Part shown: positions 8,099 through 64,000 of the stretch, in pieces
Layout of the letters: every line of letters starts with the position of its first letter
Position numbering within the stretch: position 1 is the stretch's first letter
Assembly: GCA_024679065.1 (NCBI GenBank)
Contig: JAGIQG010000017.1
Span: forward strand, 32,116,001-32,180,000
DNA: 64,000 bases
Direction: 5' to 3'
Origin: Sphyrna mokarran
Lineage: Eukaryota
Position numbers and translations under genes: made by a program
Notes under the pieces: model-generated
What the model was told of the DNA's origin: nothing
Database searches by the model: none
Seen by the model: only the letters and a program-made list of their open reading frames with translations

Positions 8099-8368
8099 CA
8101 TACTTTGACATGATGTAAAGATGCCGGCGTTGGATTGGAGTGGTAAGAACTCAGTAAGAATTTAGCAACACCAATTATTAATCCAACCGATTTATTTGAT
8201 AGTAAAAAAGCGAGCTTTCAACACTCCCGTGTCTTCATCAGGCAAGTCACTGCACTTGCCTGATGAAGACACGGGAGTGTTGAAAGCTCGCTTTTTTACT
8301 ATCAAATAAATCGGTTGGATTAATAATTGGTGTTGCTAAATTCTTACTGAGTTCATACTTTGACATGA
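8099..8368. mobile_element. Fold-back (palindromic) PLE-type element with a hammerhead motif in each arm and a 15-bp TSD
   Basis: Perfect inverted arms 8147-8247 and 8254-8354 around a 6-nt loop. Direct repeat catactttgacatga at 8099-8113 and 8354-8368. Unpaired tail tgtaaagatgccggcgttggattggagtggtaa on the left. Confidence 0.9.
8258..8291 (+). ncRNA. Minimal hammerhead ribozyme motif (mirror copy on the minus strand at 8210-8243)
   Basis: GC-CUGAUGA-A-GACAC-GGGA-GUGUU-GAAA-GCUC-GC: intact core, 5-bp stem II with a GNRA loop, palindromic AGCU mini stem III. Predicted cleavage after C8289. Stem I is only 2 bp. Confidence 0.65.
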
Positions 8369-8816: not shown

Positions 8817-9198
8817 CGCAAACTCAATTTACAAAATAATGGTTTGAAATGTGAGTCTTTACAGGTAATCAAGTCTTAAAAAAATACAGACAGTGTGAGT
8901 GGAGAGAGGGTTAATCTCAGGTTAAAGAGATGTACATTGTCCCCAGCCATTCTGAAGACAATAAACTAAAAGAGACAATAAAATAAAATAACGACCTGCA
9001 TTCCAGCCATTATTTTGTACACTGAGATTGCATTTTTATATGCCCTGTTTGTGAACAGAACTCCCACTTACCTGATGAAGGAGCAGTGTTCCAAAAGCTA
9101 GTGGCTTATGCTACCAAATAAACCTGTTGGACTTTAAACTGGTGTTGTGAGACTTCTTACTATGTTTACTCCGGTCCAATGCCGACATCTCCACATCA
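8817..9198 (+). mobile_element. PLE-type terminal fragment with inverted 5' part and decayed hammerhead
   Basis: 8817-8858 is the approximate reverse complement of 8993-9033. Core CTGATGA-A-GGAGC-AGT-GTTCC-AAAA-GCTA-GTG at 9072-9103 has G12 changed to A. The 3' tail ccggtccaatgccgacatctccacatca is related to the tail of the 8.1-kb element. Confidence 0.75.
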
Positions 9199-10194
9199 TG
9201 GCCAAGTAACAGTCAGCCAGTATGAATCCTGGCTGGACATGGATCCTGCGCCGACAGTGGGGTTGGAGCTTGGGTAGGTGTATGGTTAACTCGTGACATT
9301 GGAAGAAAATAAAAAGAGGTCAGGCAACTGGAAAAAAGGTGCTCGGAGTTGGAAGGATGGAACATGGAGCTAGTCAAAGCACCTATGAAAAGTGGACCTT
9401 AAAATGGCCTCTGCACCAGGTGAGAAAGGCAGGCCTGCCAGTTTAGATGAACATTCAGCCCCTTGCTTCACCGACGACAGTCTGCAGCTGTGCCACAGGC
9501 AGGGAGTGCCTAATATGATGTTCTAATGCAATACAATGGAAAGAGGGCATGGACTGCAGTTACGTACAAAGCATCATACCTGCTCATCAGTGCAGCCATC
9601 GCAGTTGATGCACTTTATATGAAGTTGACGTTTCTCTTCATCCTAACAATGACTGCCACACTTCATTCTGCACCCTCACCTTTTCTTCTTTCCTATGTAC
9701 TCAGTGAATGATATGCTTTGTCTGTATAGCATCCAAGGAACAATAGTTTTCACTGTATACCAATACATGTGACAATAATAAATCAAATCAAATTAAAAGA
9801 TACCCAGCTGCCTTTGTACATCACCATTTCCTAATCTATCAATTAAACATTATATTTTCACGTTTCACTGCATCGGCCATATATTTTCCCACTCTCACAA
9901 TTGTCTAAATCACCTTGAAGCTTCCTTACATTCCCCTCAACACTCACATTCTCAACTGTCTTATGTTGTCAGCCAACTTGAAAGTCATACATCTCTCCCT
10001 GACTGCAAATGATTGATACATAATGTATAGCTGCAGCCCAAGCACTGATCCCTGTGCTTCCCCACTCGTCACCACCTGTCACTCTGGAAAAGACCCGTAT
10101 ATTCCTACACTCTATTTCCTGTTTACGAACCAATTCTCAACCCATGCTGGTATATTACCCCCAATCCAATCTTTCTGAAGTCTTCCTGGAATAC

Positions 10195-17437: not shown

Positions 17438-17651
17438 GATCTGATTGTATACATTAATTCATATTAACTGTAGCTGTAAATAAATAGAGGAAAATATTCA
17501 ACAGCACATATATGATATTTGAATTGGAATTTTATACCCATTTTCTAAAGGCACTGAAAACTGCTCAAGTTGCAGTCTTGTTTTATTTAACTGGAAATCC
17601 TCTATTTATTTACAGCTACAGTTAATATGAATTAATGTATACAATCAGATC
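17438..17651. repeat. Perfect 54-bp inverted repeat with a 106-bp spacer
   Basis: gatctgattgtatacattaattcatattaactgtagctgtaaataaatagagga (17438-17491) and its exact reverse complement (17598-17651). Confidence 0.95.
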
Positions 17652-31649: not shown

Positions 31650-31821
31650 GTTAAACTGGGGTGGGCACAGTAAGAAGTCTCATACTAGGTTAAAGTCCAA
31701 CAGATTTATTTGGAATCATGAGCTTTTAGAACGCTCACCTGATGAAGGAGCAGCACTTCGAAAGCTTGTGATTGTAAATAATCCTGTTGGACATAAACAT
31801 GGTGTTGTGAGGCTTCTTGCT
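31650..31821. mobile_element. Diverged fold-back PLE-type element with a hammerhead core in the loop
   Basis: Imperfect arms at about 31668-31726 and 31761-31821. TCAC-CTGATGA-A-GGAG-CAGCA-CTTC-GAAA-GCTT-GTGA at 31735-31771 gives a 4-bp stem I and a 4-bp stem II. Confidence 0.75.
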
Positions 31822-34049: not shown

Positions 34050-34165
34050 CTCAATTTTTTATGATGTAAAGATGCCGGCGTTGGACTGGGGTAGTAAGAA
34101 TTTAGCAACAATAAATCGGTTGGATTTAAAATTGGTGTTGCTAAATTCTTACTCAATTTTTTATG
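34050..34165. mobile_element. Short derivative of the 8.1-kb fold-back element, with a 14-bp TSD and no ribozyme core
   Basis: ctcaattttttatg at 34050-34063 and 34152-34165. Same tail atgtaaagatgccggcgttgga. Perfect 18-bp inverted arms 34093-34110 and 34136-34153. Confidence 0.85.
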
Positions 34166-41639: not shown

Positions 41640-41721
41640 ACGTTGATGGTTGAGTGATTAAAATGTTGGACTTGAAATCCAATGAATTCTCCCCATGCAG
41701 GTTCAAACCCTGCTCACTGGA
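41640..41721 (+). pseudogene. tRNA-Ser(UGA) pseudogene
   Basis: gatggttgagtgattaaaatgttggacTTGAAatccaatgaattctccccatgcaggttcaaaccctgctcactg aligns with vertebrate tRNA-Ser-TGA. Anticodon stem ttgga/tccaa and T-arm gcagg/cctgc are intact. The acceptor and D arms are decayed by CpG-type changes. Confidence 0.8.
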
Positions 41722-53127: not shown

Positions 53128-54338
53128 CTTTTACCTATAATTGACAACAATGGAGATAATTTTTAAAACACAGTTTGTAATGTGCCACAAACTTAAAGGA
53201 TAAACAGCTTTGTTGCAAAATTATTATTGAACTGATACAATGAATTTGTCTCCACAACAAGATGTTATAATTTAAAAATATTAGTGGTAAACACCAATTT
53301 CAGATCACACCTATTTAAAAATGCTAAGTTTATACATACATAAACAAAAACTTGCTTTCTAACCCAAATTCCTCCAGCACTAATAAACATGTTTGCAAGT
53401 TACTCAAAATTAATCTTAGGCTATGTAATTCATTTCTGAATTCATCCATCCCTCTCAACTCCATCCCACTGGCCTACTGACAGATTTCACTAGATAATAT
53501 TCTGCTCCTGAATGCATTACAGCTTAAACATCATGGCAAAACTGGAAAAACATAATTTTGTAAATCTGATGCTTTTGCTAGTCTGTGCTAGGCCACTATT
53601 GTTTTGGAGCAAGACTGGCTTGTCTCAAGATGAGAGATCAACTGAAAACTATCTAAAGTTTCTATCAATACACATGACAATATTAAGTCAAATCAAACAA
53701 ACATCTAATTCTTGAAAAGATATTTCAGAATATATCATCGCAGTTGTTCTTGTTGGTATTTCATTGCAATTAAACTTTTTATAACAGTATGTATTTACTA
53801 TTTAGAATGGCTATGGTGCTGGAAATTAAGCAATAGACCTTTCCAAGAAATATATAATCTTTGATTTGAGTGAATGCACAAGCTAAGTAGAAGCAGGTGC
53901 TGATGAATTCATTCAGAGAATCAGCAGGCAAAAGCCCCTTTAGCAGCTTCAAAAGTCAAGTATTGTCAATTTGACAGCAAAGATGTAAATGCGTGACTTA
54001 AAAAAACACTTTATATTTTTATCTTTATTGAACTATGTTTGAATAAATCTGAACTTTCGCTACTGAGAATATTCATTTAACAAGACTGGTTTGCAGTAAG
54101 AATGCGGTCTCCTTACAACAGAAAGGTATGGGATGCATACCAGAAAGGATATTTGGTCTAAAAGGAAAGATTAGAAATCTTATTTTTCTAAGTAAACTTG
54201 ATGGGGATAACAGATGAAGTTTCACAAGCAGCTTAAATGTGATGAATTATTTTGTTTCAACAGCCGTTGACTTTATTTTACATTAGAGTTTAATTATTTT
54301 GTTTTAGTCTTTAAATAGGGATCATTTTAACTCTGTGA

Positions 54339-54520
54339 AGAGAGAAACTGAGTCAATTTTGTTTGAGTCACTCTAACTTCTTCAGAGCTCTGAAGAAGTG
54401 TCATATAGATTCAAAACTTTAATTCTGTTTCTCTCTCCACCAGATGCCACCAAACTTGCTGGATTTGCTAGCATTTTGGTTTTATTTCAGATTTGCAGCG
54501 TTTGCAGTATTTTGCTTTTA
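54339..54520. mobile_element. Second-family fold-back element with a degenerate hammerhead (CTGAAGA core)
   Basis: Palindrome centre acttcttcagagctctgaagaagt at about 54376-54399. Outer inverted match agagagaaac / gtttctctct. Decayed stem II and GAAAC (gtcatatagattcaaaac). Confidence 0.6.
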
Positions 54521-63010: not shown

Positions 63011-64000
63011 GGCCAATTTCTTTACATTTGGATCTTTCCATGCTGAGAAAGCTAATACCTCCCATATTCCCACCTGTGCTCAATAAAATGGGGTGGGGGG
63101 AGGTGATTGAATAATAATGCGCATCTCAGGTGATAGCATATGTTACATTGTATCTTTCCAGGGATGAGCAGGTGGATTGTGTTTGGAACTTCAACAGATT
63201 AGAAGGATTCTCCATAGTGTAGGGTGTTATTTGCTGCATATTTTGCTTATCAAATGCTGCATCTAAACGTAGAGAGATATCAGAACCACATAGGCTTCCA
63301 CAACTTGAATGTGCGTTTCAGGCGCAAATATATCCAGCACAGTGTACAGTGAATGCTCGGTGTTCTGTTAGTTATCATGATATCTTTATTCTGCATTATT
63401 CTGCTGGACCATCCTTATTTGAACTCTCGAGCCTTCTGTCAGACGATGGCATCAGAGAGCTCTGTCTCTGTCTGCTGCGGGCATGACAGCGTGTTCGAGC
63501 TCTGGCCTGGCACTAATGCTGCCACTCAATGCCATTCAAGTGCCCCTTTTTTTTCAGTTATCGCTTGCAGGCTCGCTGTGGGCTGCGCCAAGCTGGAGCT
63601 CCACTGCCATGTCAGCAGGAGAGCATTTCTTGCAGTCCAGGATCAGACAGCCTCTCTGAAGACCCGAACCAAAACCTGGTACAACTCCTAGCGGTGGATC
63701 ACTCAGCTCGTGCATCAATGAAGAGCGCAGCTAGCTGCAAGAATTAATGTGAATTGCAGGATGCATTGATCATTGACACTTTGAATGCACTTTGATCATT
63801 AGGTGTATGACTACAGCAAATCAACCACACGTGGGTAGCGTGCATTTTATGAGAGCCAAGTTGTTGCCATACAATTTTATTGTACGTCATTCATGGGATG
63901 TGGGCATTACTGGCTGGGCCAGCTTCCCTGGGGACATAAAACAGTCAACCACATTGTTGTCGATCTGGAGTCAGTGTAGTCTAGATCAGGTAAGAATGAC

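Follow-up and report, generated by a model that had tools for sequence, protein, structure and literature searches.

The perfect hairpin at positions 8099-8368 of the window, as we call the whole 64,000-nucleotide stretch of Sphyrna mokarran DNA analysed here, is almost certainly a dead-end insertion product of a Penelope-like element (PLE). Judged by its sequence, the parent is a canonical EN+ PLE with RT and GIY-YIG in a Neptune-type layout.

The whole insertion has about 240 bases and folds as a single hairpin (-184 kcal/mol, z = -33). Sequence comparison in the window gives perfect inverted arms of 101 nt each, with the 6-nt spacer CACTGC between them (Table 1). The preliminary description had this anatomy exactly right, including the 33-nt one-sided tail, the 15-bp TSD and one motif per arm. 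Its 6-nt loop is correct in length and position but not as a separate loop: it is family sequence immediately 5' of the ribozyme and has the same sense as the tailless arm. We number the family from the first C of CCTGATGA as 0 (8259, plus arm), with the predicted cut between +30 and +31; the 5' ends of the arms then lie at -5 (tailed) and -11 (tailless). TSD and element share 5 nt at the tailed end and 1 nt at the other end, and the final 5 nt of 8099-8113 (TCATG, minus strand) match the element template up to the ORF start codon too.

On the evidence of the letters alone, the palindrome is not an assembly artefact, because it has a TSD and there are 644 similar structures with differing junctions. 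The sister copy noted earlier at 34 kb is also a real fold-back. The insertion had been called recent, its lack of arm mismatches being one of the reasons given. The copy is indeed young, but zero arm mismatch is ordinary here (21/36 short pairs have none), and the window copy is therefore young but typical.

Table 1. Coordinates of the hairpin and of its sister fold-back in the window.
Feature	Positions	Strand	Remarks
TSD, left copy, 15 bp	8099-8113	.	identical 15-mer at 8354-8368
One-sided tail, 33 nt (at most 38 nt counting the ambiguous 5 nt)	8114-8146	-	absent from the other side
Tailed arm	8147-8247	-	begins 5 nt upstream of the CC preceding the ribozyme core
Hammerhead motif in tailed arm, C3-C17	8212-8241	-	mirror of 8260-8289; predicted cut 8212/8211
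Apparent loop	8248-8253	+	family positions -11 to -6; belongs to the tailless arm
Tailless arm	8254-8354	+	extends as far as the second priming zone (about +95)
Minimal hammerhead motif, tailless arm	8260-8289	+	from sequence and column counts; predicted cut after C8289
TSD, right copy, 15 bp	8354-8368	.	identical 15-mer at 8099-8113
Sister fold-back, related subfamily	34061-34153	.	tailed minus arm and tailless plus arm, TSD-bounded, without ribozyme

Positions 8110-8247 are identical over 138/138 nt to the ends of the ORF-bearing copies L031, L032 and L035. This confirms the Penelope-like origin proposed earlier and supplies the autonomous RT plus GIY-YIG partner with shared ends. The 30-nt motif pattern has 2419 exact matches in the genome, against 0 for the reversed control. 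Among the 100 matches listed (of 2419, counted by eye) there are 30 facing motif pairs, 5 bp to 3.8 kb apart, and the long pairs hold an RT frame with a C-terminal GIY-YIG frame. Six ORFs were scanned with Pfam: RVT_1 is above the cut-off in five, and GIY-YIG appears in five with E-values of 1.6e-4 to 3.6e-4 and 21.2-22.4 bits, just below the Pfam cut-off of 22.6. No GIY-YIG match was reported by Pfam for the ORF of L035, though the YIG letters are present in its frame. This open frame of 893 aa also has DKG and YIDD, and the linker CHSNLCKTC at residue 755. A PDB sequence search with the ORF gave nothing at E <= 1.

Partial tandems forming pseudo-LTRs are present in L043 and at 120 exact tail-to-ORF junctions genome-wide. 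In such copies the tail leads directly into the ORF ATG, and the tail sequence is the stretch between the pLTR end and that ATG. The order of RT and C-terminal GIY-YIG, together with a CX2-5CxxC linker, is common to the Neptune clade in the available sections of PMC8557442 and PMC3846280; the linker motif is shared by Nematis. In Anolis Poseidon and Adineta Pen2a the tail lies inside the ORF, whereas here it ends at the ATG.

The genome contains 644 short fold-backs in which both cores are present and the gap is at most 30 nt, and their junctions are of many kinds. Their abundance speaks for the earlier proposal of a tiny, independent non-autonomous fold-back retroelement, copied as a unit and having its ribozyme blocked by the antisense arm. 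So does the recurrence of some junctions, and so does L249, which equals the window copy in junction, alleles and tail side. However, L249 is the only other occurrence of the window junction, junctions vary widely, and two copies per junction is close to chance expectation. The recurring junctions sit on micro-palindromes (-8/-8, -2/-7) with the tail on either arm. Arm lengths grade from the short fold-backs up to the full ORF, sister fold-backs such as the 34-kb copy have no ribozyme, and a 101-bp duplex would hide one priming zone. From a junction found twice among 644 and a facing spacing of 5 bp to 3.8 kb, we therefore place the hairpin among the insertion products of the autonomous element, as a member of their shortest class. 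The independent element is very improbable and already largely refuted. A MITE or DNA fold-back element is ruled out by the asymmetric ends and the RT parent.

Elsewhere in the window, older hammerhead-bearing ends of other PLE-type families lie at 9065-9208, 31660-31820 and 54330-54440, and those at 31.7 kb and 54.4 kb resemble decayed fold-backs. At 17438-17651, two perfect 54-nt inverted copies flank a 106-nt spacer; unrelated to the arm by BLAST, they are possibly a young MITE-like insert. A degenerate 5.8S rRNA copy (63683-63838) and a tRNA-like copy (41640-41721) are probably pseudogenes or SINE heads.

For the family as a whole, 106 loci of contig C1 and the window were mapped and yielded 111 insertions: 57 simple head-to-head pairs, 47 single arms and 7 other multi-piece insertions. 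These loci were drawn from the first 100 entries in each of two pattern listings, so the sample is biased towards intact motifs. L034 was left out as a duplicate of L033, and 56 pairs were kept. Within this sample, which covers one contig and was partly picked for an intact motif, exactly one tail is present in 57/57 head-to-head pairs. The TSD measures 11-15 bp in 56/56 kept pairs. Tailed ends gather near the ATG, between about +127 and +137, and all but three tailless ends between +85 and +100. At 46/56 tailed and 44/56 tailless ends the first 1-6 letters of the TSD continue the template, compared to 30% for shuffled TSDs. The tailless arm extends at least 4 nt further 5' in 15/56 pairs, including the window copy, and neither arm therefore contains the other there; the tailed arm extends further in 21, and 20 pairs are within 3 nt. 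Among L001, L081, L098, L100, L144, L146 and L287, several share the target TAATCTATAGCTAT in a host repeat and others GCTGATAG, which suggests preferred target sites.

The two arms of a pair tend to be alike. Arm alleles, counted on the same contig and partly motif-picked sample, are concordant in 34/45 pairs (shuffles 10) and differ at subfamily sites in 11/45, with L129 discordant at five linked sites and L091 and L136 at two. Mismatch between arms at non-subfamily sites is 0.65%. The two arms also tend to fall in the same length class (37 short/short, 18 long/long, 1 mixed; p = 9e-14), and the 5' ends fall within 3 nt of each other in 19/37 short pairs (shuffles 7.7). Allele-discordant pairs are as symmetric in their ends as the remaining pairs; symmetry therefore does not require a single template. 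A separate case is L043 (G000:C1:37774000-37776300), an internally deleted derivative with the ORF start joined to -219. Its deletion is present in both arms, and both therefore come from the same kind of template.

Such pairs probably form by twin target-primed reverse transcription, with short arms running off the 5' end of a short RNA. The endonuclease would nick both target strands 11-15 bp apart, leaving two 3' ends as primers for reverse transcription. Copying would begin in two start zones separated by about 38 nt, one for each primer: one cDNA would start at the tail end, the other in the zone upstream of it, and the two would be joined head to head. For the window copy, one cDNA would have run to -5 and the other to -11, short arms ending by run-off at the RNA 5' end. 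This scheme draws on the identity with ORF copies, the one tailed and one tailless arm, the 11-15-bp TSDs, the microhomology at both ends and the pile-up of 5' ends. With the Anolis PLE in vitro, both strands are cut and extended, and two start sites bound the tail (available sections of PMC11167929); the scheme would tie these two start sites to the two arms. We consider two priming events per insertion quite likely. The discordant arms imply that some insertions, at least, used two RNAs, and on balance we favour this reading. Against twin priming on two RNAs stand the allele concordance of 34/45, the coupled length classes and the near-symmetric short pairs, all predicted more simply by self-priming or a single RNA. 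Microhomology could also come from end-joining instead of priming, and allele discordance from gene conversion.

The position of the 5' ends adds a further constraint. About a third of the arms stop 1-20 nt upstream of the ribozyme, at a wall at -19. Between -21 and -1 begin 71/167 mapped arms (3-4 per base), and between -40 and -22 only 3. With genome-wide probes, 3577 arms reach -8 (a probe that undercounts one subfamily with a variant base), 2953 reach -18, 2465 reach -30 and 2422 reach -42. Arm loss per base thus falls about tenfold, from 1.5-1.9% to 0.15%. Single arms behave likewise, 12/47 beginning between -25 and -1. From the 120 tail-to-ORF junctions 82 were mapped, and 65 were kept after removing 14 array matches, one duplicate and two unmapped. 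Of the long-ORF tandem copies that extend to -8, just 1/24 ends short of -30 (p = 0.0016 vs 31%), and 4/6 short-ORF copies reaching -1 stop in the wall zone. Long-ORF copies pass the zone, which is therefore no general block to RT.

The wall could mark where a short-leader RNA begins, its transcription starting within the pLTR; on this reading we are evenly divided. In Drosophila Penelope, transcription begins inside its pLTR (PMC2377424, available in part). For the wall only, an RT stall at a local 5-bp stem (-23..-19 with -9..-5), or palindromes losing their centres after insertion, would be another source. The stem is present in the predicted fold, and centre deletion is consistent with the symmetric ends. 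Even so, 23/24 long-ORF copies pass the zone, the wall is seen in single-arm insertions too, and the region is no better folded than shuffles (z = -0.6), which makes both variants unlikely. We ruled out -19 as the start of the template of full-length copies, as long-ORF copies do not stop there. A splice acceptor at -19/-18, where both end peaks fall on CAG, was rejected because the ends have no common upstream exon. A cap-G signature at arm ends is indistinguishable from templated G or microhomology. Among L250-L319, long-ORF copies mostly end within about 370 nt past the tail-ORF junction (5' ends +115 to -258, 42/47), and three end at about -211, as if copying stops soon after one full unit.

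Self-priming, in which a nucleic acid snaps back and is copied into the second arm, with the tail lost on one side at resolution, would explain the likeness of the arms directly. For head-to-head PLE palindromes it has been put forward with an antisense template (PMC3846280), and it has also been invoked for the tail (PMC8557442), both sources being available in part. Concordant alleles (34/45), coupled length classes, near-symmetric 5' ends and the junctions recurring at micro-palindromes (-8/-8, -2/-7) all agree with it. What makes it improbable are the multi-site discordant arms of L091, L129 and L136, which are equally symmetric, and the unpaired spacer of up to 2 kb in long pairs. The window spacer is in sense with the tailless arm, and microhomology is found at both target ends; these also count against it.

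Still less probable is twin priming with one RNA as the only template, in which the first cDNA is displaced by the second primer and discordance comes from later gene conversion. The strict one-tail rule, the length coupling and the concordance would then follow without extra assumptions. However, conversion from an ectopic donor would be needed in about 1/4 of young pairs, although facing arms should homogenise each other, and L129 differs at five linked subfamily sites. Twin priming, sometimes with two RNAs, is the reading that we favour.

As for the ribozyme, each arm reads CTGATGA-A-GACAC-GGGA-GTGTT-GAAA-G-CTC, that is, CUGAUGA, an extra A, a 5-bp helix II, GAAA, the palindromic AGCU and CUC. 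It was identified by reading the sequence against the description in the available part of PMC4209133; an Rfam search of the window gave no hammerhead match, and for the hairpin only sub-threshold miRNA hairpin hits. Column counts over about 151 arms bear out the earlier assignment to the minimal type I hammerheads with palindromic AGCU at helix III. The CUGANGA and GAAA cores, the NUH, the extra base after A9 and the palindromic 15.2-16.2 are all there; core columns are invariant or nearly so, and N7, loop 2 and the loop 1/distal helix I side vary. Among the matches listed, one homologue from another organism has compensatory changes in helix II (C-G to T-A, A-T to G-C), and the same homologue has a G-T to G-C change. 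GAAAG-CUC, described before as unusual, is ordinary, because AGCU is the palindrome expected at 15.1-16.1; the palindromic 15.2-16.2 arrangement is described in the accessible text of PMC4209133, and GAAAGCU occurs also in a second PLE-type end of the window, at 31739.

The published minimal metazoan PLE hammerheads (Cervera and De la Pena 2014, PMC4209133, in the sections available) have the core, the extra A after A9 and the palindrome in common with ours. Like ours, they are without helix III as monomers, and opposite-strand head-to-head pairs were noted there. Our motif departs from them in a G.U at 10.1-11.1, where G10.1-C11.1 is highly conserved in that source, and in a helix I of only 2 bp (window allele). 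In the 11.1 column, U is found in 149 and C in 3 of 152 arms, so that G10.1-C11.1 is not the pair of this family.

No clear genomic footprint of ribozyme cleavage was found among the truncated ends of sampled negative-probe matches (100/492 sampled, 69 truncated). Eight ends at first fell at +31, four of them from a single microhomology junction and one miscalled. After dropping the four microhomology junctions, the miscall and one internal deletion, 4/59 ends lie at +30 to +32 (p = 0.29). The excess at +31, which had at first suggested a cleavage footprint, does not outlast the removal of the recurrent junction ends. An excess of ends lies at the U-run +33 to +36 (14/59), partly from permissive allele scoring.

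In the available part of PMC4209133, the published minimal PLE hammerheads show no activity as monomers and weak activity as dimers. The Anolis hammerhead, in the accessible sections of PMC11167929, cuts only with protein and is dispensable for insertion in vitro. The ribozyme here is a passenger of the pLTR, probably weak and, in the parent RNA, probably in need of a dimer partner or a protein. Dimeric cleavage of PLE hammerheads was reportedly described by Lunse et al. in 2017. If the window hairpin were transcribed, its ribozyme would be fully paired off in the single predicted hairpin, as first proposed; this antisense lock is a by-product of head-to-head joining.

The architecture of the hairpin, with its inverted truncated copy, one-sided tail and hammerhead, is already known (PMC8557442, PMC3846280 and PMC4209133, each available in part). 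Canonical EN+ PLE insertion units consist of a 5'-truncated copy and an adjacent inverted copy with a 30-40-bp tail and a TSD (accessible parts of PMC8557442 and PMC3846280). The inverted truncated copy, the tail at one end, the TSD, the pLTR hammerhead and the partial tandems are common to canonical EN+ PLEs (Craig et al. 2021; Arkhipova et al. 2013) and to this family. In contrast, here both arms are only about 110-140 nt, the tail is strict (57/57) where the available printed text has 'often' or 'optional', and the 5'-end wall at -19 is sharp. The strict tail rule, the both-end microhomology, the mixed-allele arms and the wall were not found in the literature searched, and older PLE papers or supplements may hold them.

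Poseidon PAc of Anolis carolinensis (Frangieh et al. 2024, PMC11167929) likewise has two RT starts bounding the tail, cutting and extension of both strands and a protein-assisted hammerhead, in the sections available. Its starts have no homology to the cut DNA there, whereas here about 80% of ends have 1-6 nt of microhomology. The same sections do not tie its two start sites to two arms. Non-LTR retrozymes (Li et al. 2026, 10.64898/2026.07.22.740005, available in part) are likewise short non-coding pLTR derivatives with type I hammerheads; they form head-to-tail tandem arrays, while the window hairpin is head-to-head.

Small head-to-tail arrays occur in this genome too. L280 (G000:C749:36342000-36344600) has a 155-nt unit running from +34 through the tail into the ORF start, with about seven units in one arm, a shorter inverted arm and one tail, all TSD-bounded. 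Its unit starts 3 nt past the predicted cut and is without ribozyme, and L253 and L176 share the unit junction; the array may come from rolling copying of a small circle. L281 (G000:C905:25586500-25588500) is retrozyme-like: in its 166-nt unit the hammerhead core is retained, and a deletion follows directly on the cut site. L282 has a 142-nt unit.

LINE-1 twin priming likewise starts from both target strands and leaves an inversion between TSDs. There the two pieces derive from different stretches of one RNA, whereas the two arms here represent one and the same region.

The window copy itself is ordinary, and the family is the useful object: a young PLE with intact ORFs and thousands of near-identical ends. 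From it, the formation of head-to-head PLE insertions can be studied statistically at the level of single bases, a question that the available parts of the literature leave open. The one-tail rule, the mixed-allele arms and the -19 wall each offer a direct test of mechanism. A more tentative extension, which we hold rather doubtful, has a dimeric enzyme with two RNAs, sometimes from different source loci, primed from the two target strands at one start zone each and copied to the RNA start at -19, with AGCU helping to pair the RNAs. If true, the palindromic AGCU of the hammerhead would gain a job other than cutting, and the stubs would be a record of the Penelope integration reaction. Lastly, inverted repeats of Drosophila Penelope are reported as a source of dsRNA against the element (PMC3681739, in the part available). 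By analogy, we predict that the hundreds of perfect 100-bp hairpins in this genome would be a dsRNA source against their own element.
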